From assembly GCA_964016885.1 (NCBI GenBank), contig OZ024740.1, positions 222,766,001 through 222,830,000 of the forward strand: DNA of 64,000 bases. The letters run 5' to 3'. Both the position numbers and the translations under genes were made by a program. Shown one piece after another: positions 2,339 through 63,429 of this stretch. The stretch's first letter is position 1, and each line of letters opens with the position of its first letter. The notes under the pieces are model-generated. The model searched no databases, was not told the origin of the DNA, and worked only from the letters and a program-made list of their open reading frames with translations. Origin of the DNA: Eledone cirrhosa (lineage: Eukaryota).

Positions 2339-3939
2339 TGGTGGTGGATATATATGTATGCATGTATGTATCCTCCACTCTATACCTCACAGGCACATTT
2401 TATCATACCAGCTTCCCAAAATATTATTTTCTAAGTTTCTCCTTCTCTCGCTCCCCTCTATCTCTCATCTTCTTTCCCTATCTTTCACATCCTCCACTTC
2501 CCATATCTCTCAAATACACACACTCTATTACTCCCTCACTCCGTTTTTGCTACATATTATTGATAAATACATGAAATGTCACAGTCTTTAAATTCATTGT
2601 GAAGGAAATTTCATTATGTAACAATAGCATAATTAACAACAAGGCATGAATCTTTCATTGGTGAGCACTAATTACTATCAGTAGTGCTAATTGTATTCAG
2701 GACTACCTTTTGTCTCATTCTTTCACTTCATTATAGCATTGAACCACAATTTAAGGTTAGCTTGTAGTAATGATAATTCTTTCTATCGTATGGTCTTACC
2801 TCACATGAACTACACCTAAACAATTATAATGACTACCAATACCACCACAACAAACAATACATCCTGCTCTGCCACTACCATTGTCAATTTCATCAACACC
2901 ACCATCAATATCAACACCATCACACCCACTACCACCACCATTAGCATCAAGACCACATCAATTGCAACTAAACCATCCCAATGACAACCAATAACCCCAC
3001 CACTGACATTCACAAACAACACCACCACCTCCATTAATATCAGACCATCAACAACTAAACCATCACAATGTGTATCAACAGCATCACAACAAACACCATA
3101 ACAAGCTCCATCAACGTGATCTTTTCAATAACTAAACCATCACAATGAATACCGACACCACCACAATCACCACCATCAACTATCACCACCATCATTACCC
3201 ACCATCACTCCCACCATCACCACCATCATCAGCATCACACCAACTAGACTATCAGAGTGACTTCAAATATCTCTACAATCCCTTCCTTCTAGCTATCAGA
3301 GTCATCAGCACTACCTTCATCATCATCACCCCCACCACCACCAGTATTGTGGCTATCAACATCACATCAACACTATGACTGTGAATAACACCACCACAGC
3401 AAACAACACACCACCCACCACAGCCTCCACCATCATCAATGTCATCATCATCATCATCATCACCATCAGCATCAGACCATCTGCAACTAAACCATCACAA
3501 TGACCATGAACACCATCACCACCGCCACAACCATGAATATCCCATCAACTAGACCAACAGAATGACTTCGAATATCGATACATCCCTCCACAGCCACCAC
3601 TGTCACAAGCACTACCCTCTACAACATCACCAACACCATCACAATGGCTATGGGCATCACATCAACTACAACTAAACCAACACAATAACTATGAATAACA
3701 CCACAACAAAAAGACACACCAGCCAGTTCTGTCACCACTATTGACAACATCATCTTCATGACACTAGATATCAAAACCAACAAAATAAATCCCTGTCACC
3801 ACCACCATCAAAATTATATCATCCACAACAAGACCATCACATTGATTACCACCGCACACCACCGCACACTAATACAACAACTAACAATACAGCAAAGACC
3901 AACAAAACAACAAAACAACACAACAGTCAACAGCACAAA

Positions 3940-6900
3940 TATCAACACCACAACAGCCAAAGCCACAACCAACTACACATAAGAACCAACACCACAACAG
4001 CCAATGCCACAACACCAAAACAGACTATGCCACAACATCACAACAGTCAATGCCACAACACCACACCAGCAAATGCCACAACACCAAAACACCACAACAG
4101 CCAAAGCCACAACATCACAACACCACAACAGCCAATACCACAACACCACAACAGCCAATGCCACAACTCCACATCAGTCAACACCACAACACTACAACCA
4201 CCAATACCACAACACCACAAAATCCAATACCACAATATCACAACAGTCAATGCAACAACACCATAATAGACAATGCCACAACACCACAACAGCCAATACC
4301 ACAACACCACAATAGAGAATGCAGCAACACCACAAAGGCCAATGCCACAACACCACAACACCACAACAGCCAATGACACAACATCACAACACCACATCAG
4401 CCAATGCCACAACACCACAACACCACAACAGCCAATGACACAACATCACAACACCACATCAGCCAATGCCACAACACCACAACACCACAACAGCCAATGC
4501 CACAACACCACAATAGTAAATGCCACTACATCACAACATTCAATCCCACATTACCACAACAGCCAATGCCACAACACCACAACAGCCCAAGCCACAACAC
4601 CACAACAGTCAATGCCACAACACCACATCAGTCAATACCTCAACACCACAACAGCCAATGCCACAACACCACAATAGACAATGCCACAACACCACAACAA
4701 CCAAAGCCCTAACACTACAACAGCGAATGCCTTAACACCACAAAAGGCAATGCCACAAGACACAAGACCATAAGACCACAACACCACAACAACCAAAGCC
4801 CTAACACTACAACAGCCAATGCCCTAACACCACAACAGACAATACCACAACATCACAACAGCCAATGCCACAACAGCCAATGCATCAAGAGCTCAACTTC
4901 ATAACGGCCAATGCCACAACACCACAACAACCAATGCCACAAATCCACAACAGTCAACACCACAACAGCTAATGCCACAACATCACAACACTGAATACCA
5001 CAACATCAGTCATTTCCACAACATGACAACAATCAATCCCACAACACCACAACAGCCAGGGTCACAACACCACACAGCCAATGCCATAACACCACAACAG
5101 CTAATGCCACAACATCACACAGTCAATCCCACAACACCACAACAGTCAATGCCACCACATCACAACAGTCAATGCCACAACCCCACAACAGCCAATGCGA
5201 CACCATCACAACCGTCAATGCCACAACACCACAACAGCCAATGCCACAACATCACAACAGTCAATGCCACAACACCATAACAGCCAAGGCCACAACACCA
5301 CACAGCCAATGCCACAACACCAAAACAGCTAATGCCACAACCTCACACCATTCAATGCCACAACCCCACAACAGCCAATGCCACAACCCCACAACAGCCA
5401 ATGCCACAACACTAAAACAGCTAATTCCACAACATCACAAGAGTCAATGCCACAACCTCACAACAGTCAATGCCACAACACCACAACAGCCAATGCCACA
5501 ACACCACAACAGCCAATGCCAAAACAACACAACGGCCTATGCCACAACACCACAATGGTGAATGCCACATCACCAAAACAGCCAATGCCACAACACCACA
5601 ACAGCCAATACCACAACAGCACAACAGTAAATGCCACAAAACCACAACAGCCAATGCCACAACACCTCAACAGCCAATGCAACAACACCTCAGCAACTAA
5701 TGTCACAACATGACAACAGCCAATTTCACACATCACAACAGCCAATGCCACATCACCACAAAAGTCAAAGCCACAAAACCATAACAGCCAATGCCACAAC
5801 ACCACAACACCACAACAACCAATGCCCTAACACCACAACAGCCAATGCCCTAACACCACAATAGCCAATGCCATAACACCAAAACAATCAATGCCACAAA
5901 ACCACAACAGCTAATGTCACAACATAACAACAGCCAATGGCAAAATATCACAACAGCCACTGCCACAACACCACAACAGTCAATGCCACAACACAACAAC
6001 AGCCAATGCCACAACACAACAAGACCACAACACCACAACACCACAACAACCAATGACCTAACACCACAAGAGGGAATGCCACAACACCACAACAGTGAAT
6101 GCCACAACACTAGTAAAGCCAATGCCACAACATCACAACCGTCAATGCCATAACATCACAACATTCAATGCCATAACACCACAACAGCCAATGCCACAAC
6201 ACCTCAACTGTCAATGCCACAACACCACAACAGCCAAAGCAACAACATCATAACAGTCAGTGTCACAAACCACAACAGCCAATGCCACAACATCACAACA
6301 GTCAAAGCCACAACACCACAACAAGCAATTCCACAACACCACAACACCACAACCACCAATGCCCATACATCACAACAGCCAATGCCAGAACATCATAAAA
6401 GTCAATGTCACAAACCACAACAGCCAATGCCACAACATCACAACAGTCAATTCCACAACACCACAACAAGCAATGCCACAACACCACAACAGTCAATGTC
6501 ACAACACCCAGTGCCACAACACCACAACAGCCAATGACACACTACCTCAACTGTCAATGCCACATCATCACAACAGCCAGTGCCACAATATCATAACAGT
6601 CAGAGTCACAAACCACAACAGCCAATGCCACAACATCACAACAGTCAATGCCACAACACCACAACAAGCAATGCCACATCATTACAACAGTCAATGCCAC
6701 AAACAGCCAGTTCCACAACACGACAACATCCAATGGCACAACACAACAGCCAATACCACAACACCACAGCTGTCAATGCCACAACACAACAACAGTCAAT
6801 GCCGCAATACAACAGCCAATACCAGAACACCACAGCTTTCAATGCCTCATCACCACAACAGTTAACACTACAACAGCTACTGCCGCAACATTACAACAGT

Positions 6901-9900
6901 CAATGCCACAACAACATAACAGCCAATGCTACTACACCACAACAGTCAATGCCACAACACCACAACATACAATGCCACAATACCACAACAACCAATGCCA
7001 CAATACCTGAAAAGTCAATGCCACAACAGCCAGTGCCACAACGCCAGAACAGCCAATGCAACAACACCACAACAGTCAATGCCACGACAGCCAATACCAC
7101 AATACCACAACACCACAACAGTCAATGACACAGCATCACAAAATTCAATGCCACAACACCACAACACCTCAACTGGCAATGCAACAACACCACAACAGCC
7201 AATGCCACAACACATTTACAATAGTCAATGTCACAATCCACAACATCCTATGCCACAACATCACAACAGCCACTGTAACAAAACCACAATGGCCTATGTC
7301 ACAACACCACAAGAGTGAATGCCACATCACCACATCAGCCAATGCCAATGCCACAATACCACAACAGCCAATGCTACATCAGCAAAACATCACAACAGCC
7401 AATGCCACAACATGACAACAGCCAATATCACAACACCACAGCAGTCAACACCAGAACAGCTAATGCCACAACATCACAACAGTCAATGCCACAACATCAC
7501 AACAGTCAATGCCACATCATCACGACAGTCAATGCCCCAACACCATAACAGCCAATGCCACTAGACCACAACAGCCAAGGCCACAACACCACACAGCCAA
7601 TGCCATAACACCACAACAGCTAATGCCACAACCTCACAACAGTCAATGCGACAACACCACAACAGCCAATGTCACAACATCACAACGGCCTATGTCACAA
7701 CCCCACAAGATTGAATGCCACAACACCACATCAGCCAATGCAAATGCCAAAATAAGACAACTGCCAATGCTGCATCAGCAAAACATCACAACAGCCAATG
7801 CTACAACACCACAACAGTTAACACTACAACAGCTAATGCCACAACATCACAACAGTCAAAGCCACAACATCACAACAGTCAATGCCACAACATTACAACA
7901 GTCAATGCCACAACAACATAAAAGCCAATGCCACTACACCACAACGACCAAGGCCACAACACCACACAGCAAATGCCATAATACCACAACAGCTAATGCC
8001 AGAGCATCACAACAGTCAATGCCACAACACCACAACAGCTAATGCCACAACACCACAAAAGCCAATGCAACAACACCACAACAGCCAATGCAACAATGCC
8101 ACAATAGCTAATATCACAACATTCCATGCCACAACATAACCACAGCCAAAGCCACATCACCACAAAAACCAAACCACAACACCACAACAACCAATGCCCT
8201 AACACCACAACAGCCAATGCCCTAACACCACAATAGCCAATGCCATAACACCACAACAGTCAATGCCACAAAACCACAACAGCTAATGTCACAACATAAC
8301 AACAACCAATGGCACAACATCACAACAACCAATGCCACAGCACTACAACAGTCAATGTCATAAAATCACAACATTCAATGCCACAACACCACAACAGACA
8401 ATGCCACAAAACCACAACAGCCTATGCCACAACACCACAACAACCAATGCCACAAGACCACAACAGCCAATTCCACAACATGACAACAGTCAATGCCATA
8501 ACACCACAACACTGTATGCCACACCACCACAACTGCCAATGCCACAAAATCACAACAGCCAATGCCACCACATCTCAACAGTCAATGCCACAACACCACA
8601 ACAGCTAATGCCGCAACATCACAACAGTCAGTGCCACAATATCACAATATTCAATGCCACAACACCACAACAGCCAATGCCACAACACCACAACAGCCAA
8701 TGCCACAACACCATAACAGCCAATGCCACAACATCGGAACAGTCAATACCACAACACCACAACAGCTAATGCCACAACACCACAACAGTGAAATGCAACA
8801 GCACCACAAAAGCCAATGCGACAACGCCAAAATAACTAATATCACAACATTTCAACAGCCAATGCCACAACATAACAACAGCCAATGCCACATTACCACA
8901 AAAATCAAACCACAACACCACAACAACCAATGCCCTAACAAAACAACAGCTAATGCCCTAACACCACAATAGCCAATGCCATAACACCACAACAGTCAAT
9001 GCCACAAAACCACAACAGCTAATGTCACTACATAACAACAGCCAATGCCACCACACAACAACAGCCAATGCCACAACACCCCAATAGTCAATGCCAATGC
9101 CACAATACCGCAACAGCCAATGCTACATCATCACAACAACATAACAGCCAATGCCACAACATTACAACAGTGAATGTCACAACACCACAACAGCCAATGC
9201 CACAACACCACAACAGCCAATGCCACAACACCACAACAGCCAATGCCACAATAACACAAGTGTCAATGCCATAACACCACAACAGCCAATGCCACAACAA
9301 CACAAGTGTCAATGCCATAACACCACAACAGCCAAGGCCACAACATGACAACAGCCAATGCCATAACACCACAACACTGTATGCCACAACATCACAACTG
9401 CCAATGCCACAAAACCACAACAGCCAATGCCACCACATCTCAACAGTCAATGCCACAACAGCACAACAGCTAATGCCGCAACATAACAACAGTCAATGCA
9501 ACAATATCACAATATTCAAAGCCACAACACCACAACAGCCAATGCAACAACACCACAACAGCCAATGCCACAACACCACAACAGTGAATGCCACAATACA
9601 CAACAGCCAATGTCACAATACCACAACAGCCAATGCCACAACCGCACAACAGTGAATGCCACAAGACCATAATGGCCAATGCCACAACACCACAACAACC
9701 AATGCCACAACAACACAACAGTCAATGCCACAGCTCCACAATAGCCAATGCCACAGCATCACAACAGCCAATGCCATAACACCACAACAGTGTATGCCAC
9801 AACATCACAACAGCCAATGCCACAACACCACAACAGCCTATGCCACAACACCACAAAGGAGAATGCCACAACACCACAACAACCAATGCCACAACACCAC

Positions 9901-12900
9901 AACAGCCAATGCCACAACAACACAAGTGTCAATGCCATAACACCACAACAGCCAATGCCACGCCATGACAACAGCCAATGCCATAACACCACAAAACTGT
10001 ATGCCACAACACCACAACTGCCAATGCCACAAAACCACAACAGCCAATGCCACCACATCTCAACAGTCAATGCCACAACACCACAACAGCTAATGCCGCA
10101 ACATGACAACAGCCAATGCCATAACACCACAAAACTGTATGCCACAACACCACAACTGCCAATGCCACAAAACCACAACAGCCAATGCCACCACATCTCA
10201 ACAGTCAATGCCACAACACCACAACAGCTAATGCCGCAACATCACAACAGTCAATGCGAAAATATCACAATATTCAATGCCACAACACCACAACAGCCAA
10301 TGCCACAACACCATAACAGCCAATGCCACAACATAAGAACAGTCAATACCCCAACACCACAACAGCTAATGCCACAACACCACAACAGCCAATGCCACAA
10401 CACCATCACAGCCAATGCCACAACACCATAACAGCCAATGCCACAACATAAGAACAGTCAATACCACAACATCACAACAGTCAATGCCACAATATCACAA
10501 TATTCAATGCCACAACACCACAACAGCCAATGCCACAACACCATAACAGCCAATGCCACAACATAAGAACAGTCAATACCACAACACCACAACAGCTAAT
10601 GCCACAACACCACAACAGCCAATGCAACATCACCACAACAGCCAATGCAACAACACCACAACATAACAACAGCCCATGCCACATCACCACAAAAACCAAA
10701 CCACAACACCACAACAACCAATGCCCTAACACCACAATAGCCAATGCCATAACACCACAACAGTCAATGCCACAACACAACAACAATGAATGTCACACCA
10801 CCACAAAAGCCAATGTCACAACATCTCAATAGCCAATGCCACAACATCACAACAGTCAATGTCACAAGCCACAACAGCTACTGCAACAACAACACAACAT
10901 TCAATGCCACAACACCACAACAGCCAATGTCACAACATCATAACAGTGAATATCACAAGCCACTACAGCCAATGCCACAACATCACAAGTGTCAATGCCA
11001 CAACACCACAACAAGCAATGCCACAACACAACAACAGTCAATACAACAACAGCCAATGCCACCACACAACAACAGCCAATGCCACCACACAACAACAGCC
11101 AATGCCACAACACCACAACAGCCAATGCTACAACATTACAACAGTCAATTCCACAACATCACAACAGCCAATGCTACAATATCACAACGGTGAATGTCAC
11201 AACACCACAACAACCAATGCCACAACATCACAACAGTCAATATCACAAGCCACAACAGCCAATGCCACAACATCACAAGTGTCAATGCCACAACACCACA
11301 ACAAGCAATGCCACAACACCAAAACAGTCAATACAACAACAGCCAATGCCACCACACAATAACAGCCAATGCCACAACACAACAACAGACAATGCCACAC
11401 CATCAAAACAGCCAATGGCACAATATCACAACATTGAATGTCACAACACCACAACAACCAATGCCACAACACCACAAGAGTCAATACAACAACAGCCAAT
11501 GCCACCACACAACAACAACCAATGCCACAACACCCCAATATTCAATGCCAATGCCACAATACCACAGCAGCCAATGCTACATCATCACAACACCACAACA
11601 GCCAATGCCACAAGATTACAACAGTCAATTCCACAACATCACAAAAGACAATGCCACACCATAAACAACAGCCAATGCCACAATATCGCAACAGTGAATG
11701 TCACAACACCACAACAACCAATGCCACAACACCACAACAGCCAATGCCACAACAACACAAGAGCCAATGCCACAACACCACAACAGTCAAAGCCACCACA
11801 TGACAACAGCCAATGCCATAACACCACAATACTGTATGCCACAACATCACAACTGCCAATGCCACAAAACCACAACAGCCAATGCCACAATATCACAATA
11901 TTCAAAGCCACAACACCACAACAGCCAATGCCACAACACCACAACAGTGAATGCCACAATACACAAAGGCCTATGCCACAAAACCACAACAGCCAATGCC
12001 ACAACCGCACAACAGTGAATGCCACAACACCACGGCAGCCAATGCCACAACACCACAATAGCCAATGCCACAGCATCACAACAGCCAATGCCATAACACC
12101 ACAAAAGTGTATGCCACAACATCACAACAGTCAATGCCATAATACCACAACAGCTAATGCCACAACATCACAACAGACAATGCCACAACACCACAACAGC
12201 CAATGCCACAACATTACAACAGTCAATGCCACAACACCAGAACAGACAATGCCACACAATCACAACAGCCAATGTCAAAACACCACAACAGACAATGCCA
12301 CAACACCACAACAGAGAATGCCACAATACCACAACAGCCGATGCCACAACACCACAACAATACAAGAGCCAATGCCATAACACCGCAACAATCAAACCCA
12401 CAACACCACAACAGCCAACGCCATAACACCATAACAGTCAATGGCACAGCATCACAACAGTCAATGCCACAAGACCACAACAGCCAATGTCACAAAATGA
12501 CAACACTGAATGCCACAACACCACAACAACCAATGCCATAACACTACAACAGCCAATGCCCTAATACCACAACAGCCAATGCCACAACACTACAACAGCC
12601 ACTGCCACAACACCACAACAGCCAATGCCACAACAGCACAAGAGTGAATGACACAACACCACAACAGCTAATGCCACAACACCATAACGACCAATGCCAC
12701 AGCAGCACAATAGAAAATGCCACAACACCACAACAGCCAATTCCACAACACCATAACAGCTAATGTCACAACATCACAACAGTCAACACCACAACACCAC
12801 AACAGCAATGCCACAGCACACAACAGCCAATGCCACAACACCACAACAGTCAATACCATAACCCCACAACAGCCAATGCCACAACATCACAATAGTCTAT

Positions 12901-14720
12901 GCCACAGCACCACAGCAGCCAATGCTACACCAGCACAACTGCCAAAGCCACAACACCACAACAGCTAATGTTACAATATAACAACAGCCAAAGCCACACC
13001 ACCACAACATCCAATGCCACAACTCCACATCAGTCAACACCACAACACTACAACCACCAATACCACAACACCACAACAGCCAATGTTACAATATCACAAC
13101 AGCCAAAGCCACAACACCACAACAGCCACTGCCACAACACCACAACAGTCAATACCACAGCACCAACACCACAACACCACAACAGGCACTGCCACAATCC
13201 CACAGCAGTGCCACAACACCACAACACTCAATGCCTCCACACCAACACAGCCAATGCCGCAACATCACAACAGTCAATGCCTCACATTCATAACGGCCAA
13301 TGACACCAGAGCACAACAACCAATACCACAACATCACAACAGCCGATGCCACAACACCACAATGGTGAATGCCATAACACCACAATAGCCAATTCCACAA
13401 CACCACAACAGCCAATGCCACAACATCACAACATTCATTGCCACAACATCACAACAGTCAATGCCACAACACCACAGCAGCCAATGCCAAAACACCACAA
13501 CAGCCAATGCCATAACACTACAACAGTCAATGCCCCAACACCAGAACAGCCAATCCCACAACACCACAACAGCCAATGCCACAACACCACAACAGCCAAT
13601 GCCACAACATCACAACAGTCATTGCCACAACATCACAGCAGTCAATGCCACAACACCACAACAGCCAATGCCACAACACCACACCAGCCAATGCCATAAC
13701 ACTACAACAGTCAATGCCACAACACCAGAACAGCCAATCCCACAACATCATAACAGCCAATACCATAACACCACAACAGTGAATGCCACAATATCACAAC
13801 AGTCAACACCACAACAGCTAATGCCACAACACCAAACACTCAATGCCATAACATCACAACACTCAATCCCACAACATCACAACACTCAACACCACAACAG
13901 CCAAAGCCACAACACCATAACAGCCAATGTTACAATATCACAACAGCCAAAGCCACAACACCACAACACCACAACAGCCACTGCCACAACACCACAACAC
14001 CACAACAGGCACTGCCACAATCCCACAGCAGCCAGTGCCACAACACCACAACACTCAATGCCACAACACCACCACAGCCAATGCCGCAACATCACAACAG
14101 TCATTGCCACAACATCACAACAGTCAATGCCACAACACCACATCAGCCAATGCCACAACACCACAACAGCCAATGCCATAACACCAGAACAGCCAATCCC
14201 ACAACATCACAACAGCCAATACCATAACACCACAACAGTGAATGCCACAACATCACAACAGTCAACACCACAACAGCTAATGCCACAACACCAAACACTC
14301 AATGCCATAACATCACAACACTCAATCCCACAACACCTCAACAGCCAATGCCACAACACCACAACAGCCACTGCCACAACACCTCAACAGCCAAAGTCAC
14401 AGCATCTCACCAGCCAAAGCCACAACACCACAACAGCCAAAGCCACACCACCACAACAGCCACTGCCACAACACCACAACAGTCAATGCGACAGCACCAC
14501 AACAGTCAATGCTACAATAACCAACACAACAACACCACAACAGGCACTGCCACAACACCACAGCAGTCAGTTAAACAACACCACAACAGTCAATGCCACA
14601 ACCACCTACACCACAACCACCAACACCACAACCACCAATGCCACAACCACTAAACCACAAGCTCAAACATCACACCAGTCAATGCCCCAACACCACAACA
14701 GCCAATGCCACCACCACCAA
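3940..14720. repeat. Large degenerate minisatellite, 23-bp consensus ACAACAGCCAATGCCACAACACC, with higher-order duplications
   Basis: The unit is visible throughout. The 23-nt period gives the recurring MPQHHNSQCHNTTTANATTPQQP pseudo-peptide in all + frames. Boundaries are approximate because the array fades into CAC/CAA/CAT low-complexity DNA (about 2820-3940 and 14720-15480). Confidence 0.95.
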
Positions 14721-16029: not shown

Positions 16030-16416
16030 GTAGGCACCTTTTAACCACTGTATCCCCAACAACCCACTTCTGTCCATACCACCCTTACACTGTGAACAAA
16101 ATATATCCAACTCACACTGTAAAGTGGTGATGTAGGTATCACAGCAAAAAGCACACAGCCCACTCTGTAAATTGACCATGTAGGTGTCACAACAAAAAGC
16201 TCACAGTCCACTCTGTAAAGTGGTCGTGTAGATGTCACAACAAAAAGAACCTAGCAGACACAGTAAATGTAGTTTGCATTAGAAAGGGCATCCATAGAAA
16301 CCTAGAGAAAAACAGTCCTATATGAGTAAGAAATGGTCACATAACCCAAATTACCTCAAATGGGATAGCATGTCTAATCTATGCTAGGGTGGAGATTGGA
16401 CAATGATGATGATGAT
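16030..16416 (+). mobile_element. Older RTE 3' UTR fragment, tail-to-tail with the young RTE
   Basis: About four ~50-bp subrepeats (cacactgtaaagtgg...acaacaaaaagc), then ttagaaagggcatcc and a (GAT)n tail. Confidence 0.85.
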
Positions 16417-16440
16417 CATCATATATATATATATATATAT

Positions 16441-19400
16441 ATCATCATCATCATCATCATCAACGTTTAACGTCCGTGTTCCACGCTTGCATGGGTTTGG
16501 ACGGGGGTAGTCCCACTTGAGGCAAGAGTGATTGTCTTGCTCACATAGGACTGTCTGGCAGGTTTTCTACAGTTGGATGCCCTTCCTAACACCAACCACA
16601 TTTACAGTGTGGGTCTGGGAGGTTTTTACCGTGTTGCCTACACGGCCACATTACAGCGTGGACTGTGTGTTTTTTTGTCGTGACACCTACACGATCTCAT
16701 TTGTTTCGGCCTGGATGGCGCGGCACCAACATAACTTTACATAGAACGGGGTGGTGTGGATGGGGTGGGGGTGGCGGCGGGAGGGGTGTATTTTGTTAGA
16801 GATGCCTACTGGCAAGGCGGGTCTTCTCTGTTACTGAGTACCGCCAAAGGTCACGGTCCAGTGACATTGTCTTGGAGAGGTGTAAGTGTGTGAGGTCGGA
16901 GTTTATCAGCTCATCCCATGTTTTTCTAGGTCTGCCTATTCCGTGGCTACCGTCTATCTTTATTGCCCTGCACTTTGTAATACAGCTATCGACTTTCATG
17001 CGCATCACGTGTCCATACCAACGCAGCCTTCTCTCGAGTAAACAACATCTGATCCCTCTTATCTCTAATTTTTTCCTTAGTTCGTTTATGCTTTGCCGTT
17101 CACGTATATTACTGTTACACATCCAGCGGAGCATGCAAGCTTCGTTCCTCTCTAGTCTGCGTATATCCTCTGCACACAATGCCCAGGTCTCACTACCATG
17201 CAACATTGCTGTTCGTATGCAGGCATCGTACAACCTGCCTTTCATTTTTAGGGAGAACCCTTTAGCAGCTAATAGTGGTATAAGCTCTCTGAACTTTTTC
17301 CAACCAGTTCTGACTCTAGCTACAGTACTTTCAGAGCACCCTCCCCCACTGCTGATTTTATCGCCCAGGTAACGGAAGCTGTCCACTATTTCTATAAAAC
17401 CCTCTGCGCAATTGAAAGAGCTAGTATTTTGTGGGCACTTGCTGCTACTTATTGCACCAGAACACCGGCCACATGTAAAGTCTATGTTCTTAGTTAGCTT
17501 ACCTGTGATCCCACTACATCTTTTATGCACCCATACTTGGCATTTAGGACATAAGATGGAGTTTCTACCTACGCCTTTCCTACATACCGAGCACGACCAT
17601 TTCCCAGAAGGGACCGCCGCCTTGTTTTCTTTCCTACAAACTAGAACTTTGGTCTTAGCCAGGTTAATTTTAAGTCCTTTTGACTCTAGGCCGTGCTTCC
17701 ATGTTTGGAATTTCTTCTCTAGCTCGGCCATTGATTCCGCTATGAGTGTCAGGTCGTCTGCGTATAGGAGTTCCCATGGGCAGCCTGTCTTGAACTCCTC
17801 TGTTATAGCCTGAAGGGCAATAATAAATAGTAGGGGGCTGAGAACAGAGCCCTGATGGACGCCAACTTTTACGCTAAACTCTTCACTATATTCGTTGTTA
17901 ATTCTAACCTTGCTGACTGTTTCTTTATACATGGCTTGTATAGCCCTCACAAGCCATTCGTCAACGCCTAGTTTTCTAAGAGCCCACCAGATAATGGAGC
18001 GGGGGACTCTGTCGAAGGCTTTCTCCAGGTCGACAAAAGCTAAGTAGAGGGGTTTACCTTTAGCTAGGTACTTCTCCTGTAGTTGTCGTACTATGAAAAG
18101 AGCGTCTGTGGTGCTTTTGCCTGACACAAACCCGAACTGCATTTCATCTAGATCAATTCTCTCTCTGATTAGTTGCGCTATTACTTTTTCCGTGACCTTC
18201 ATGACCTGGTCGATTAATTTAATGCCTCTATAGTTACTCCTATCTAGGGCGTCTCCTTTACCCTTATAACAGTTAACGATGATGCTGCTATGCCAGTCCT
18301 TCGGAACAACCCCATTCTGTACGACTTGGTTAACTATGCGGGTGACCATGGTGTGTCCCACCGTGCCAGATGCCTTCAGCATCTCAGCAACTATTTCCGA
18401 AGGCCCAGCCGCCTTACCAGTCTTCATATCCTTGATTGCCTTACTTATTATACTCCCCTCGACTAACACTGCTGGTCCCTCTATCGGGTCGATATGGGGG
18501 AGACTGTCTTTCTCCCATTTATTCTCCTCATTTAGTAGCCTTTCATAGTGACACTTCCAAGCTACCTTCTTATCAGTGTCGGTGATGGCAAGTATGCCAT
18601 CATCGTTAAGTACACACTTCTCCCCGACAATATCACGGTTTTCCTTGACGCATTGCCTGGCAATCCTGAACACCTCACGTTTTTGGTCATCGCGTTGTAG
18701 AACATGCTTGAACTTTCTTTCCTCAGCTTCCCTTCTTGCTAAGTACACTTCTCTCCTAGCTTCCCTCCTGGCCACTTGATAGTCTACTCTACTTCCCCCA
18801 TCCCGCCATACTTTCCAAGCCTGCTTTTTGGCCTTAATTGACCCCTCCACCTTACTGTTCCACCACCATGTTACTCTCCTCCTGCCTACAGGCCTGCTCC
18901 AGCCACAGACTTCGTCTGTCGCCAACAGCAGGTTAGCTTTCAGAAATTTCCACTGTCCCTCTATATTGTCCGATTCTAGATGCTCTTCCTTACTGTCGAA
19001 AGCATCAAGTAATATGCTTTGAAATTTATTTCTGGCTGTGGGGTCTTTTAGTTTCCATATTTTCCTCCTGAGGATAGTCCTCTTCTGCTGTCGGGTGTGT
19101 CTCGTCCTGACTATGAGGTCGCTAATTATCAGTCTATGTTGGGAGGTGCATTCTTCATGGGGGAGGGATTTAGTGTTTACAACAGACACTCTGTCACGTC
19201 TTCTGGTAAGGATATAATCTACCTGGCTTGTGTGTTCCCCGGATCTATAGGTAATCAGGTGATTGTCACGTTTTTTGAAGTTAGTGTTACAGATAGTTAG
19301 GTTATTTGCATCACAGTATTCCAGAATTCTGGAGCCTTCCTCATTTCTAGTACCAAACCCATAGCCTCCATGGATTTCGTCATAGCCGTCACAATGTTGT

Positions 19401-19808
19401 CCAACGTGACCATTTAGGTCGCCTGCAATAATTATATAGTCACTGTCAGATATTTGGGAGGTAGTTAGCAACAGTGTCTCATAGAATCTGTCTTTTATAG
19501 TGCCGGGCAGTCCGGATTGGGGTGCGTACGCAGATATTACTGTCACCGTAGTTCTATTGAGGACAAGTCTTATTTTAATTATTCTGTCGTTCACTCTATT
19601 TACGTCTATTATCTTATCTGCCCACTTTTCTGCTACCATGATTCCTACTCCACCCAGCCCATCGTCGTTTCCCACCCAGAAAAGCTTATAACATCGTTTT
19701 TTACCCTCAATGAATCTAGCAGACCCACCCCTCCACCTGGTCTCTTGAATACAACAAACATCGACCTCCTTACGTTCAAGCATTTCTACAACCTCGTTAG
19801 CGCGACCC
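16441..19808 (-). mobile_element. RTE-clade non-LTR retrotransposon, near full length, 5'-truncated, with (GAT)n tail
   Basis: Single APE+RT ORF and a ~350 bp 3' UTR ending in (GAT)n (ATC repeats on + at 16441). Flanked by (TA)n on the left and TATATA at 19809. Confidence 0.95.
16796..19783 (-). CDS. RTE ORF: AP-like endonuclease + reverse transcriptase + PHD finger + C-terminal domain (995 aa, no stops)
   Basis: APE motifs CIQETRW, SAYAPQ, GDLNGH, QVDYIL, SQHRL. RT motifs YRGIKL, QFGF, FVDLEKAFD, GVHQGSVLSP, LLYADD. C-terminal FRYLG, RLRWYGHVMR, GRPRKTW. The frame stays open 8 codons upstream of the ATG (GRANEVVE) before a TAG at the flank junction. Confidence 0.95.
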   Translation of the reverse strand: MLERKEVDVCCIQETRWRGGSARFIEGKKRCYKLFWVGNDDGLGGVGIMVAEKWADKIIDVNRVNDRIIKIRLVLNRTTVTVISAYAPQSGLPGTIKDRFYETLLLTTSQISDSDYIIIAGDLNGHVGQHCDGYDEIHGGYGFGTRNEEGSRILEYCDANNLTICNTNFKKRDNHLITYRSGEHTSQVDYILTRRRDRVSVVNTKSLPHEECTSQHRLIISDLIVRTRHTRQQKRTILRRKIWKLKDPTARNKFQSILLDAFDSKEEHLESDNIEGQWKFLKANLLLATDEVCGWSRPVGRRRVTWWWNSKVEGSIKAKKQAWKVWRDGGSRVDYQVARREARREVYLARREAEERKFKHVLQRDDQKREVFRIARQCVKENRDIVGEKCVLNDDGILAITDTDKKVAWKCHYERLLNEENKWEKDSLPHIDPIEGPAVLVEGSIISKAIKDMKTGKAAGPSEIVAEMLKASGTVGHTMVTRIVNQVVQNGVVPKDWHSSIIVNCYKGKGDALDRSNYRGIKLIDQVMKVTEKVIAQLIRERIDLDEMQFGFVSGKSTTDALFIVRQLQEKYLAKGKPLYLAFVDLEKAFDRVPRSIIWWALRKLGVDEWLVRAIQAMYKETVSKVRINNEYSEEFSVKVGVHQGSVLSPLLFIIALQAITEEFKTGCPWELLYADDLTLIAESMAELEKKFQTWKHGLESKGLKINLAKTKVLVCRKENKAAVPSGKWSCSVCRKGVGRNSILCPKCQVWVHKRCSGITGKLTKNIDFTCGRCSGAISSSKCPQNTSSFNCAEGFIEIVDSFRYLGDKISSGGGCSESTVARVRTGWKKFRELIPLLAAKGFSLKMKGRLYDACIRTAMLHGSETWALCAEDIRRLERNEACMLRWMCNSNIRERQSINELRKKLEIRGIRCCLLERRLRWYGHVMRMKVDSCITKCRAIKIDGSHGIGRPRKTWDELINSDLTHLHLSKTMSLDRDLWRYSVTEKTRLASRHL

Positions 19809-20527
<719 letters not shown>

Positions 20528-46388: not shown

Positions 46389-46992
46389 TATAAGTATGTA
46401 CACGCACATAAATATATGTATACAGACGTACAGTAGTATGTATATATATATATACATATATGTACGTATGGATTCACCGAACGTTTATTATAATACTCGG
46501 TGTGTTTGTAAACAAACATCCCGTATTAAGCCGTAGTGTCCAGCAACCATCGTTGCTCGTTTGTTCAACACTGACAAAGGAACGATTAACCCGGCCGATT
46601 TACCCACTCGATATTCAAATTGGGTTACTCAGCCGTTAATATGCATAAGGTAAGTATATACGTTCAACAATCTGGCAGGAAGGTATACGTTGCTGATGAT
46701 AGCTAATAAGCTTGAAACTAGTAAAGCGTTCCTTTGTCAGTGTTGAACAAACGAGCAACGATGGTTGCTGGACATTACGGCTTAATACGGGATGTTTGTT
46801 TACAAACACACCGAGCATTATAATAAATGTTCAGTGAATCCATACGTACATATATGTATGTGTTCATGTATGTATATATATATATACATACTACTGTACG
46901 TCTGTATGCATATATTTATGTGCATGTACATACTTATATTTAAGTAACAGCCCTACTAAGAGTGGGAAATTGAATTTCGTTTCATTTTTTCA

Positions 46993-49842: not shown

Positions 49843-50748
49843 TAAAGTATAGAAATTATTGTGAGCATGAAGCCAACAGTATTTCATAATATATAAGTGA
49901 CTATAACGTCAAAATGGAAAAATAGTTAACGTAAGATGTGGGAAAATAATTCAAACTCAATTAAAAACAAGTCAAGACAGATTAATCCATAGAATTTTGT
50001 GAAATCCAGGGAAAAATCAATAGAGCCTTAACTCAGAATAAAATAAAGCCTAAATACTCATCCTTCAATTTGGAAAAACTACAAATGCTCTGTAAAGTCT
50101 TAAAAAGACTATTTCGTTAAACTTTCAGTGGGGATGGTCAAACATTATAACCCTAAATCCACTGTAGAATATGCCAAAAGGGGAATTTATATATATATAT
50201 ATATATGAGAATGTAAGTTGCTGTTGGTTCACCAAAGTGAGCACATGTGTAGTCTCCAGTATGTACTTTGGGGTTGTACTAAGCAGAGTGTGTGTATGTA
50301 TGGATATATATATACATACACACATGACACCGACTGGGTGTGTAGTGGTCATTTAAACAAACCTTTACATTCATTGAGGCTACCATCCACTGAGAAAGTA
50401 TTCCAAAGCCAAATTTAATAATTACATAAAGTTTGCAAGTATTACCTAACTACTATTATTGATACACTGGAGTAAAGAAACTGATGCATCCTTTTGGGTG
50501 TATTTGATATACTAATATCAATAAATACACATAGCCATATTGATTAATGTATATTGATTAATATTGATTAATGTATGTGTGTTCTCTGAGTAATGCGTTT
50601 GTATTTCTAACAATACAAATCTTATATCACTGAGTGGGTAAGAAACAGCTGAAGCTGATTAGCTTTGAGCTTTGTAAACCTCTCTCTCTCTCTCTGTCTC
50701 ATATATATATATATATGACTGTAGTGTGACCCTTATGCTGACTTTTCT

Positions 50749-50840
<92 letters not shown>

Positions 50841-51027
50841 TTTATTCTCTGAGGAGAGGTGGTAGTACATTAAAAGCCTTCGCCCCCTTACCAGATGGTC
50901 ATTAGTAGACCGAGTTGCCATCACTTGAAGGCAACTGACCAAGGTGAAAGCAGCTAGTTGGTCAGTCGTCCTCTCTGTCTCTGATTTTGGACTCATGGAT
51001 TTTATATATTCCTTTGTTATATTTCAA

Positions 51028-51085
51028 ATACCTGATGATATCATCAGATTCATACGGAACCCGGTCATTGAAATGATCATAGTAT
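51028..51085 (+). ncRNA. Type I hammerhead ribozyme in the 5' repeat
   Basis: ATAC-CTGATGA-helix II-GAAA-TGATCA-T-A-GTAT then AATAAA. Helix III is the palindrome ATGATCAT; helix II is weakened by CCGG>TCAG. Confidence 0.8.
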
Positions 51086-53009
51086 AATAAACTTTTCAAG
51101 GATTTACACCAGTCCAGCCTCCTGTTATTTTATTTATAATAATTAACTCCGTATTAGCACCACCAACTACACAAACGAAGACGGGTGAACTGCACTACGT
51201 TGAGTACACTCCATAATATTACATCAAGATTGACCATACGGAATGACCAATTCTACCCAGTGGTGAACCAACAAACCTAAATAAATAATGCTCCAATAAT
51301 GTTGAGCACTTCCAGATGTAATATTGAACAGCGGCACTGAATTCAGTGTACAGCTATTGCCAGCATGGGATTAACTGATCTACTTACCATTCGGATTTTG
51401 GCTACTCTGTGCTTTATCTACCACCCACCCTATCCAATGCTGCTTCCTTGTCATGAATATTCAGATTTTGACAAAATTCTACGTATTATACTTAAGCATG
51501 TACTGTATTGACTGAATTCTCTACTCTATACCTAAGGATCTTTTTGTGGCTCACTGAATTCGGAGATCTGAACTTTACACTAGGTACCACTTGATACTAT
51601 TCCATCTCTTCCATCCTCTATATCTATATGTACAACCTTCAATTATCTTACTGCAACTTGATCTATTTTGTATTTCCCCTTTGCCTTGAATCCTCCGATA
51701 TGTTCTTATATATTTCCGTCTTACTACATCACTACCCTAGGTATGACAGCGTTTTATTCATGTATTTTACTTTTTTACTTTTTACCTTATTAATGTATTT
51801 TTATTAATGTATTTTTTATATATTTTTTTATTTCTTATCTTTGTATTTTTACCTTTGTATCCTGCTTTTATTTATTTGGGATTTTCTGCTTATTATTCCT
51901 TACTCAGGGCATTATGCACCATTCATAGCTCCCTACCCACCAAAGAACCACACTACTTATAACCTGGAATAACTGGGACATAAAAATAATTATAGTCTAT
52001 TGGCACTTTTCATTGGGTTTTACCACTTTTGACTGATGTGGTGGTTTTCCCGGCTGTGCACTGGGCGCTAGGGGGTTCAGCCTTCCTTGAGTGCTTGGAA
52101 AAATAAATTTTCCCCCACTTTCGGTAAACGTAACTACTCGGAGTGGCTCCATTTGCCCCGGGGCCCACCGCATCGCCTGTTTTAACTGCCACATTATACT
52201 CATACCTATAAACTCTAGGCTTAGGCATAACTGTTAGCTGTATCATGCCTCCCTGTGCTGGCATGTAAATAAACCCTTCATGTGTGAATTAATAGTATTC
52301 GTTTGGTATAGACGATGGCCTGTAGAAGCTGGTTGACTTCCCACTAGCACACTTGGGGCCTATCGCAGCTACGTTCCTAGAGTACTCTGAAAAATTAATT
52401 TCCATTTATTTCGCTAGCCGATACCACTCGAAACTGGCTGACACGTGGTTAGGAGGTGCTGGCTGGGATTTACAATCGAAGGCTTTTATCTTTACTCTAT
52501 ATCCCACCTTGATAACTTATCGAGATTCCCTATAATACACTTAAACTTTTTCATATAAGACTCTCTCTGTAATTTCATTAAATAATTCTCGCAACACAAA
52601 CCTTTAATTTTCTATTAATCTTCTAATAATTTAATTTCATCCTATAATTCTTAACATAAGTTAACGTTCCAATTTTCTGTTCACACATTAGACCATACAG
52701 ACATGCATATATATGCCTTTGTTAAAATATGGGTTCTGTGGAATAACATTTTTCGCGGCGTCTTCTAGCATGACTGTAGTGTGACCCTTACGCTGACTTT
52801 TCTTCTTTCTTTCTTTCTTTCTTTTTATTCTCTGACGAAGAGGTGGTAGTACATTATAAGCCTTCACCCCCTTACCAGATGGTCATTAGTAGACCGAGTT
52901 GCCATCACTTGAAGGCGACTGACCGAGGTGAAAGCAGCTAGTTGGTCAGTCGTCCTCTCTGTCTCTGATTTCGGACCCATGGATTTTATATTCCTTTGTT
53001 ATATTTCAA

Positions 53010-53067
53010 ATACCTGATGATATCACCGGATTCATACGGAACCCGGTCATTGAAATGATCATAGTAT
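53010..53067 (+). ncRNA. Type I hammerhead ribozyme in the 3' repeat
   Basis: Same core; helix II ACCGGaTTC atacg GAAcCCGGT; site AUA at 53063. Confidence 0.85.
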
Positions 53068-53834
53068 AATAAACTTTTCAAGGATTTACACCAATCCAGC
53101 CTCCTGTTATTTTATTTATAATAATAAACTCCGTATTAGCACCACCAACTACACAAACGAAGACGGGTGAACTGCACTACGTTGAGTACTCTCCATAATA
53201 TTACATCAAGATTGACCATACGGAATGACCAATTCTATCCAGTGGTGAACCAATAAACCTAAATATATATATATATATATATGTAATTAAGAGTGGCTTA
53301 TATATAGCCAAATACAGTGTATTAGATAGACATGATCACCTAACCTGGCTAGACTTACAACAGGACAACTTGTTTAGCCCTAGCAGGCCAGAAGTTGAAT
53401 ATTAAACAGGGATTATGATAATGATTATATATGCATAAACATATACATGAACACACGCACATATACATATATAAAGAGAGATAACAGAAAAATAATGTTA
53501 TTAGTGGCCCATTGCTCCAGTCCATTTATCTGGCAAAATGGCTTGTATCAGTAATTCAATGAGGCAGCCATTTCATAAAGTGTGTCATGCAAAATGTCCT
53601 TAGGAATTACAATAACAGTACAGGTTTCTGTGGAATGCTGAAGCACTTGTGTGTTAATACTTCAAGTTAATTCTTCCATTGGTCAGACAACTGGTCTATA
53701 ATTGTGATGTAATAATTTTCACCAGTCAAGTTTGCACTATATGCAAATGAGCTTCTCCAACAGCCAATGTTTCTAAATTTTAATCTATTTTATTTCAGTA
53801 GCTAGTGAGTAAATATTAGTGATGACAGATAAAA

Positions 53835-54483
53835 CCTAGAAGTAACTATCTGGTGTTCTAACCACTAGTGAGATAGCTGTGGCATGAGAACCACGACCTC
53901 TGGTGCTATGCATTACTCTAGAAGACCCGTCCTCCCTTTTGCTTGACCTGAGGGATATATTTACTAGGCAACACCTTCCTCTCCCATACACCTCCTTTGC
54001 TCTAACCACTCCTCCCCTATTGCCTACGTCCTCAAGTTCTCCTAGTTTCTTTCCCCATCGTCCCAAGTTCCCATCATACACTATGAAGTGATCCCACTGG
54101 AGCCATGACAAAAGTGCCCAGCCCACCCTGTATAGTGGTCATGTATGTGTCAAGAAAAAAGCGCCCAGTCCACACTGTAACGTGGTCATGTAGGAGTCAT
54201 GATAAAAAGTACACAGAATACACTGTAAATTGGTTGTGTTGGCGACACAAAATAGTGTCCAGTCCATGCTGCAAAGTGGTTATGTAGGTGTAATGACAAA
54301 AATCACCTAGCACACACTGTAAATGTGGTTGGCCTTAGGAAGGGCATCCAGCTATAGAGACGAAGCCAAAATCAGCCCCAGGTGAGTGAAACACAGTCCT
54401 CCGACCTGATTCTCTCCCAAAAGAACAGCTCATCCAACACATGCTAGCATGGAAAATGGACATTAAAAGATGATGATGATGAT
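53835..54483 (+). mobile_element. RTE-family 3' region with ~5 subrepeats and (GAT)n tail
   Basis: Same subrepeat and terminal motifs as the other copies; left boundary approximate. Confidence 0.8.
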
Positions 54484-54861: not shown

Positions 54862-54954
54862 AAACACCTCTATGAAAGATATATATATATATATTATAAA
54901 GTGAAATGACAGGAGGCAAAATATGTTGATTTCCTTAATTTTTTATTACTGTAA

Positions 54955-55012
54955 ACACTATGCACATTTCAGTGGCCAGGTTGCATAAAAACCCAGTGAC
55001 CTCATCAGGTGT
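54955..55012 (-). ncRNA. Type I hammerhead ribozyme in a solo pLTR-like fragment
   Basis: Minus strand: ACAC-CTGATGA-GGTcaCTGGGTT tttatgc AACCTGGccACT-GAAA-TGTGCA-T-A-GTGT, then AATAAA; (TA)n about 60 bp downstream. Confidence 0.75.
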
Positions 55013-55525
55013 AAATTGCGTGATAGATGTATACCAACTGTATACATGATAGTAAGCTTTAAGGAAAGAAGCAAAGAAAAGCGAAGAGGAAAAAGTGTGT
55101 GCTATGCTTTAGACCCAGATATGGACATAGTAGTATGTTGCCACACTGCTCGCCCGCCGCTGAGTATATCTATCTATCTATGAAGAGAGAGGTGCTACAC
55201 CCCAGTAAATTCGATGAAAGGTGGGTGAATGTGGCAAAAATGGCCCGAGTGAATGGGCCTTCTCTGTATATAAACCTGTATGTTGAGGAAGATAAACAGA
55301 GGGAAGACAGGAATACCTACAAAACGTGTTTCTGGTGCTGTTCTATCCACAGGGTGTAAAACAACTCTGCAATAACATTCCCTCCTATTGGGGATTTCAA
55401 TTGTTATTTTATTATATATAGTTTATTGTTATTTATTAATGTTAAAGTTATATGATTTTTATATAAAACCCCTGCTGTCACGTCTTGTAATGTCCCATTT
55501 TTGTACGCCCCTGTGGCAAATAAAG

Positions 55526-63061: not shown

Positions 63062-63316
63062 TTAACCCCTTCATTGCCATTCTTTTAATGAAAAAACACA
63101 GCCTATGATATTCAATTAATTTTCAAAATAATCAGCAATGTGAAAGAATTTAATAATATAACTAACTATTTCATCATTATGTTCATGTTTGGAGCATAAC
63201 TTAACAAAGCTTCTTACATGAATTTATGATGGAAGGTTTTGGGATAAATATATATACTTTAAATCAAACAAATTTGTATCATAGGTCCAGGGGCAGTTTA
63301 GTATCTAAAGTGTTAA
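63062..63316. mobile_element. TTAA-bounded MITE (piggyBac-like ends)
   Basis: ttaaccccttc...ctaaagtgttaa. Related copies at about 37857-38320 and 48537-48765. Confidence 0.5.
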
Positions 63317-63429
63317 AGCACATAGGTTTCTCATGTGGTCACCCATTTAAGTATTAAACCAGGCTCAACGTTGCTTAAATTCAGAGACCAGATGAGAACT
63401 GTTGCTTTCAGTGTGATATGGCCATAAAC
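63317..63429 (-). pseudogene. 5S rRNA pseudogene
   Basis: Minus strand gtttatggccatatcacactgaaagcaacagttctcatctggtctctgaatttaagcaacgttgagcctggtttaatacttaaatgggtgaccacatgagaaacctatgtgct follows the animal 5S consensus. Many CpG-type transitions; 3' end missing. Confidence 0.88.

Follow-up and report, generated by a model that had tools for sequence, protein, structure and literature searches.

A 64,000-nucleotide stretch of the Eledone cirrhosa genome (contig OZ024740.1, positions 222,766,001 to 222,830,000; hereafter the window) contains, between positions 50715 and 53265, an insertion made of 1.25 units of a dispersed, noncoding repeat family. We found that this family very probably is a non-autonomous Penelope-like element (PLE), an identity that is common to the two explanations weighed most closely below. 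As judged from its anatomy, it was likely mobilised by the reverse transcriptase (RT) and GIY-YIG nuclease of a coding PLE. Our best explanation, to which we give slightly less than an even chance, is that the window element is a 5′-truncated insertion of a noncoding PLE-like family, mobilised by PLE enzymes and copied from an RNA circle cut by its own hammerhead motifs.

The repetitive nature of the element was evident from a genome search, which returned 4824 first-look candidates, 40 of which were scored; the main matches were 87 to 95% identical. One 30-mer had 1506 exact matches in the 3.0-Gb genome, while its reversed control had none. Since copies diverge by ~3%, these matches would correspond to roughly 4000 copies of the 30-mer segment; the family is multi-copy rather than the single-copy unit for which the original prediction had allowed. 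We determined the ends of 76 copies, taken as the first listed positions on one contig and thus picked by position rather than length. The 3′ end lay at one of two fixed points in 75 of them: end 1, ~60 nt 3′ of the predicted hammerhead cut (44 copies), or end 2, ~200 nt 3′ of the cut (31 copies); one copy ended elsewhere. The 5′ ends were scattered over more than 1.7 kb. TA followed the 3′ end in 70 of the 76 copies, and 42 had an inverted partner (some pairs being counted twice). Contigs from two of three sequencing runs of unspecified kind, which derive from one sample and are neither independent nor informative on expression, contained the same two TA-joined ends. The element boundaries merge into (TA)n, and no target site duplication is readable. 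Among 14 tandem insertions with overlapping repeats, the unit length was 1863 to 2055 bp. The largest insertions reach ~2.1 units; one of these, L300, is a full dimer with 97.7% identity over 2128 bp.

Within the window, the two predicted direct repeats and the TA tracts on both flanks are present. The repeats are 96% identical across 471 aligned bases and 98% identical in a further block of 55 nt, and the (TTTC)n tract is longer in the upstream than in the downstream copy. The predicted left boundary, 50715, is the truncation point of this copy and not a fixed repeat end. Because 5′ ends are scattered across copies, the left repeat is no more than the stretch of a second unit that had been reached when copying broke off. 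The parts of the element are the following.

50701 to 50716, unstranded: (TA)n target tract of the left flank, with AT common to the tract and the 5′ junction of the element.
50715 to 51283, plus strand: upstream pseudo-long terminal repeat (pLTR), a 5′-truncated extra 0.25 unit with an expanded (TTTC)n at 50744 to 50841.
51028 to 51085, plus strand: minimal type I hammerhead motif 1, with its cut predicted after 51081; rare changes at 51044 and 51046 are predicted to be disabling.
51284 to 52769, plus strand: noncoding interior of the unit.
52084 to 52142, plus strand: conserved interior block 1 (GAGTRCT-GGAAA...TTTCC...ACTC), common to the 2.9-kb and the 70%-identical sister families.
52375 to 52433, plus strand: conserved interior block 2, an old duplicate of block 1 within the unit.
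52770 to 53265, plus strand: downstream pLTR, terminating at the second preferred 3′ end.
52793 to 52840, plus strand: CTGAC, a pyrimidine tract and AG, which from its resemblance we take to be a putative spliceosomal 3′ splice site.
52911 to 52957, plus strand: GC-rich hairpin, around which 5′ truncation points are denser.
53010 to 53067, plus strand: minimal type I hammerhead motif 2, matching the family majority at 58 of 58 positions, predicted cut after 53063.
53120 to 53126, plus strand: preferred 3′ end 1 (44 of the 76 copies), a presumed start of reverse transcription.
53127 to 53265, plus strand: PLE-type tail of ~140 nt, terminating at preferred 3′ end 2.
53264 to 53282, unstranded: (TA)n target tract of the right flank.

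Several smaller features accompany these parts. The word GAGTRCTY, self-complementary as RNA, is present in each of the two interior blocks and again in the tail (52089 to 52096, 52380 to 52387, and 53184 to 53191). At 52749 to 52759 lies TTTTTCGCGGC, presumably a putative E2F site by its resemblance; the 2.9-kb family and the coding locus L081 have similar words upstream of their hammerheads. Pyrimidine tracts precede the hammerhead motif in the sister families too. The 2.9-kb family forms the GC-rich hairpin as well, though from a different sequence (-24 and -28 kcal/mol). Around it, 101 to 220 nt upstream of the cut, lie 25 of the 76 5′ truncation points, and it could be a site of RT stalling or of RNA start.

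Each repeat carries a minimal type I hammerhead motif composed of ATAC, CTGATGA, helix II, GAA-ATGATCAT, A, and GTAT, in the layout ATAC-CTGATGA-helix II-GAAATGATCATA-GTAT. The NUH rule places the cuts at the positions that had been predicted, 1982 nt apart, and AATAAA, also expected in both repeats, lies 5 nt beyond each of them (51086 and 53068); all 12 aligned relatives have it unchanged. Rfam models of hammerheads or other ribozymes matched neither motif (E ≤ 1 over the whole window, E ≤ 10 over 50600 to 53400); the motif is therefore called from its pattern and from the compensatory changes seen among relatives. In 12 sequences across families, 87% of the cells were paired, as compared to 26 to 37% in slid controls, and none of 500 shuffles scored as high, a statistic that reflects related sequences with few independent events and hence is not a probability. 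Between families that are ~70% identical, a T-A pair in helix I is replaced by C-G and the A-U pair at the base of helix II by G-C, while the center of the 8-nt palindrome in helix III changes from AU to UG between subfamilies with pairing kept. The catalytic core is retained, whereas the interior drifts among related families. The lack of an Rfam match would agree with a local tandem duplication in single copy whose likeness to a hammerhead is due to chance; this reading is refuted by the 1506 exact matches together with the paired changes in the motif, and we give it practically no credence.

The upstream motif of the window copy departs from the family by its two rare substitutions, at positions where the family base is present in 111 and 113 of 117 copies (a count in which some columns are set by the search pattern itself). 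The energy of helix II thereby changes from -8.2 to +0.6 kcal/mol, and a 16-nt palindrome comes to lie over the core, which is buried in the minimum free energy (MFE) fold. By these models the motif is predicted to be disabled. Because it is predicted to misfold, release of the 1982-nt RNA from the window copy is doubtful, indeed unlikely, and this copy is likely a dead source. Of the double hammerhead in the original prediction, the pairing fits the family, in which the helix III palindrome is kept.

The interior had been predicted to be noncoding, and this holds across the family. In the majority sequence of 29 copies, the longest stop-free stretch was 92 amino acids, whereas shuffling gave a median of 97; of 248 indels, 41 were multiples of three. 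L025, a duplicate of L024, was left out of this majority and of the tandem comparison, from which tandems with less than 40 nt of overlap were also left out; the family-B row of alignment A2 is without its 5′ part. Using tblastn, seven PLE proteins of the same genome gave no match to the copies at E ≤ 1. The family does not bear out the decayed PLE or LTR-element open reading frame (ORF) that had been considered. Of 169 loci with the post-tail 30-mer, 30 were examined, and all of them run into sequence related to these noncoding families, with no continuation from the tail into a PLE ORF. The coding PLEs of this genome do have 3′ regions longer than 1 kb, as would be expected if the interior were the decayed ORF or 3′ untranslated region of an autonomous PLE and the family its truncated remains. 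However, complete units, from tail to tail, have no ORF although copies lie only ~3% from the majority, and the interior DNA had no match in 80 GIY-YIG loci. Together with the missing protein match, this largely refutes such an origin, which we consider highly improbable.

Related noncoding subfamilies have units of 1.9 to 2.9 kb and retain the hammerhead through compensatory changes. A sister family that is 87% identical has a 2905-bp unit, enlarged by internal duplications, and shares the hammerhead-tail module, as do further families with units of 2230, 2414, and 2618 bp. The ~70%-identical family, seen in part and not as a full unit, retains the same two 3′ ends; a tail of ~140 nt with these ends is thus found in three families. 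A fragment of this family with a hammerhead, terminating in a TA tract at end 1, lies in the window at 54889 to 55021 (minus strand). The 60-nt interior block is retained in all three groups and is duplicated within the 2-kb unit. A three-way junction was considered for this block: 90.7% of the cells were pairing-compatible, as compared to 33 to 55% when slid, but 498 of 500 shuffles scored as high, and because there is no covariation, we do not claim the structure. A 48-codon frame after the tail (MGL...) was likewise rejected, its reading frame not being kept in the 2.9-kb family.

Of seven listed PLE features, six are found in the family: 5′ truncation with fixed 3′ ends; partial pLTR tandems and inverted partners; a two-end tail; an AT-rich or microsatellite target; a minimal type I hammerhead in the pLTR; and no RT or endonuclease ORF. 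The seventh is a 3′ end shared with a coding PLE. Truncation, pLTR tandems, inverted partners, and microsatellite targets are PLE hallmarks (PMC8557442), and two starts of reverse transcription define the PLE tail (PMC11167929), both of which are matched by the two preferred 3′ ends. The closest resemblance is to endonuclease-containing (EN+) Neptune-type PLEs, with 5′ truncation, pLTR tandems, an inverted 5′ partner, an optional tail, and (TA)n (PMC8557442, PMC11167929), and to minimal PLE hammerheads, with a long helix II, a short helix I, and a palindromic helix III (PMC4209133). In contrast to EN+ PLEs, whose autonomous members have a single ORF with RT and GIY-YIG domains, the family has no such ORF, its hammerhead motif has an extra U, and its tail is ~140 nt rather than the published 30 to 40 bp (PMC8557442, PMC11167929, PMC4209133).

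The original prediction had named either an LTR-retrozyme or a tandem-pLTR PLE, and the second option is the one that agrees with the truncation, the fixed 3′ ends, (TA)n, and the inverted partners. An LTR-retrozyme or TRIM-like element using Ty3/gypsy machinery would, like plant retrozymes, have two hammerhead-bearing direct repeats around a noncoding center (PMC4918200). Plant LTR-retrozymes, however, have type III hammerheads, fixed LTRs, a primer binding site and polypurine tract, and 4-bp target site duplications (PMC4918200), whereas the present hammerhead is of type I, and the ends merge into (TA)n, in which no 4-bp duplication can be read. The 5′ boundary differs by copy, most copies consist of one partial repeat, and partners are inverted. 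On the 5′ side, no fixed inner boundary delimits the repeats, and both of them continue without a break into the interior. The absence of fixed LTR ends refutes this class, which retains only a minimal probability.

A coding partner was sought through a GIY-YIG search of the genome, which gave 10598 candidates, with at least 150 matches among those listed. One locus, L081, contains an apparently full-length coding PLE (2452 to 7431, minus strand) with a 938-amino acid RT and GIY-YIG ORF, a Neptune/Nematis-type CX4CXXC linker, and hammerheads 4979 bp apart that have a U3-A8 core variant. The coding PLE copies of this genome likewise terminate in (TA)n. No coding partner was found in the 87%-identical family, the 70%-identical family, or the 30 post-tail loci. 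The neighbors in L086, L100, and L299 were rejected as partners, being separate insertions across TA tracts. The tail showed a weak likeness to one other hammerhead family (1 to 11 of 300 shuffles, 27 comparisons), which has no ORF link. Because none of the coding loci examined carries the module contiguously, it is the common anatomy and target that suggest mobilisation by a Neptune-type element.

We then considered the template. In 71 of the 76 copies, the sequence continues for over 10 nt upstream of the cut; three 5′ ends fall within 10 nt of it, as compared to ~1 to 4 expected from the neighboring densities. None of the 76 copies begins 8 to 12 nt upstream of the core, so that there is no accumulation of 5′ ends at that point. 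Tandem junctions are seamless: 26 of the 30 post-tail loci are preceded by a tail running to end 2, and 4 begin at that junction, while joins at end 1 were not found in any of the 30, although end 1 is the commoner start. In the 14 tandems, repeats within one insertion differ by 4.45%, as compared to 6.51% between insertions, and own repeats share non-majority bases at 0.0125 per site versus 0.0041 when permuted (0 of 2000 permutations); no fixed difference separates upstream from downstream repeats. The 5′ ends, the seamless junctions, the shared variants, and the insertions of up to ~2.1 units point to a template that is continuous across the cut and to repeats that are rebuilt from one unit.

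A cut, linear monomer of 1982 nt, from whose 5′ end the RT would jump to a 3′ end without ligation, would likewise yield seamless units and shared variants, and L013 and L300 begin within ~20 nt of the cut. Failed jumps should, however, pile up 5′ ends at the cut. Because 71 of the 76 copies pass the cut and no excess is seen there, the linear monomer is not the usual template, and we regard it as improbable.

A circular template explains the pattern simply. A tandem transcript that stays uncut does so nearly as well if jumps or gene conversion are allowed, and the data fit both without separating them. In the latter case, the element would be the same non-autonomous PLE, but its template would be read-through RNA from tandem copies that has not been cut. 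The hammerhead fold would then bind protein or act late, and template jumps, unequal crossover, or gene conversion would keep the repeats similar to each other. This alternative is a serious one, though we hold it to be somewhat less than evenly probable. It agrees with the anole PLE, which mainly uses uncleaved RNA in vitro (PMC11167929), with the lack of a 5′-end pileup at the cut, with the full dimer L300, with the 4 loci that begin at the end-2 junction, and with a monomer that folds no better than shuffles and thus appears unstructured. On the other hand, the rare variants shared by own repeats differ between insertions, suggesting a rebuilding across many source lineages. No array longer than ~2.1 units was present among the loci examined, no genome-wide search for arrays having been made, and the catalytic core is retained despite the drift of the interior. 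The circle is only narrowly preferred over the uncut read-through template.

If the RNA circle is the template, a transcript spanning two hammerheads would be made, the palindromic halves of helix III would pair as a dimer and permit cutting, and a host ligase would close the unit into a circle. A borrowed protein would then nick (TA)n and begin to reverse-transcribe from either end 1 or end 2. Synthesis would proceed back over the cut and mostly drop off early; occasionally, one full lap would rebuild the terminal repeat. A circle model for the rebuilding of PLE pLTRs has been proposed (PMC4209133).

Several observations weigh against this explanation. With respect to mobilisation, a contiguous hammerhead-tail module in a coding element was found in none of the 80 GIY-YIG loci (from 150 listed matches), and all 11 pairings of a module next to an ORF among 304 loci are split by a TA tract. 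With respect to cutting, the family-majority motif as a monomer has an inactive MFE fold of -13.9 kcal/mol, as compared to -3.0 kcal/mol for the active fold. The motif also has an extra U before GAAA, which is shared with the hammerheads of coding PLEs in the same genome, and A-U rather than G-C at the base of helix II. Minimal PLE hammerheads are of low activity (PMC4209133), cleavage was seen in one of nine dimers (bioRxiv 10.64898/2026.07.22.740005), and hammerhead cleavage was dispensable for insertion in vitro, with no reads ending at the cut (PMC11167929). As to the circle itself, the circular 1982-mer of the one decayed copy tested has a folding energy of -411.5 kcal/mol, which is surpassed by 5 of 16 shuffles. 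Finally, the shared variants cluster in L001 and L010, so that gene conversion is possible, as are homogenised source arrays, and inverted partners share variants too.

With its tandem noncoding units that each carry a type I hammerhead motif (1.25 units in the window copy, ~2.1 in L300), its low GC content (38%), its proposed dependence on PLEs, and its dimer-type helix III, the family also resembles animal non-LTR retrozymes, which are likewise noncoding and arranged head to tail (PMC7229834; bioRxiv 10.64898/2026.07.22.740005). Its unit is, as had been predicted, much longer: 1.9 to 2.9 kb, as compared to RNAs of 170 to 400 nt and consensus lengths of 51 to 972 bp (PMC7229834; bioRxiv 10.64898/2026.07.22.740005). 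In contrast to non-LTR retrozymes, it consists mostly of truncated single copies and not of arrays, its hammerhead is minimal and not canonical, and its monomer is not highly self-paired by the shuffle comparison above. Self-cleavage and abundant circular RNA are further features of non-LTR retrozymes. Like Chlamys MRC1 of Chlamydomonas, the family is a noncoding PLE parasite with pLTRs and head-to-tail insertions, and MRC1, too, was first mistaken for an LTR element (PMC8557442). Non-autonomous Chlamys elements, however, as a rule have an autonomous family with the same 3′ ends, a partner not found here, and most Chlamys elements are without the hammerhead that the present family retains (PMC8557442). 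In Adineta vaga, pLTRs suffice to mobilise unrelated, even noncoding, DNA in trans; those captures are isolated events, whereas the present family has radiated into thousands of copies whose interior blocks are conserved (PMC3846280). The literature searched holds no description of 2- to 3-kb hammerhead-bearing noncoding PLE families, although repeat libraries, subscription papers, and supplements lay outside that search and may hold such, and the available part of a repeat-annotation paper (PMC13282606) contains no hammerhead or non-autonomous term. The family is an unusually long case of overlap between non-autonomous PLEs and retrozymes of the non-LTR type; noncoding PLE parasites as such are already known.

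The window also contains other features. An uninterrupted 1003-amino acid long interspersed nuclear element ORF with APE endonuclease, RT, and a PHD finger lies at 16796 to 19807 (minus strand) and is unrelated to the element. A different hammerhead, at 20131 to 20202 (plus strand), matches Rfam HH9 with 38.6 bits (E 3e-6), under the gathering score; it sits between inverted arms (19881 to 20060 and 20233 to 20412) and terminates in a TA tract. The HH9-type motif occurs twice in L172, 466 bp apart, as a second, short retrozyme-like or PLE-tail family. A 10.8-kb array of a 23-bp CA-rich unit spans 3943 to 14719, and short arrays at 16095 to 16247 and 54110 to 54329 both have a related 48-bp unit. 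An inverted repeat of 150 nt, 93% complementary, is formed by 46441 to 46590 and 46721 to 46870 with a spacing of 130 nt, and a diverged 5S rRNA match at 63310 to 63429 (minus strand; 62 bits) is probably a pseudogene.

These results address how PLEs rebuild tandem pLTRs and whether hammerheads cut in their cycle. Because a noncoding family is free of the constraint of an overlapping ORF, its conserved parts, namely, the hammerhead, the tail, the two interior blocks, and the hairpin, make a list of candidate cis-acting elements, and thousands of copies permit a genome-wide test of the start and stop sites of reverse transcription. The preprint survey of retrozymes restricted the repeat period to ≤1000 (bioRxiv 10.64898/2026.07.22.740005), and our family suggests that surveys confined to 1-kb periods miss a longer class. 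We tentatively propose, as a possibility that we would not yet bet on, that such families are 2- to 3-kb "macro-retrozymes": noncoding PLE parasites that cut themselves to unit length, are circularised, and are reverse-transcribed around the circle, with the terminal repeat rebuilt at each jump. If this is true, their circles would be several times larger than the described animal retrozyme circles, and they would show how Penelope pLTRs regenerate and why the hammerhead is kept.

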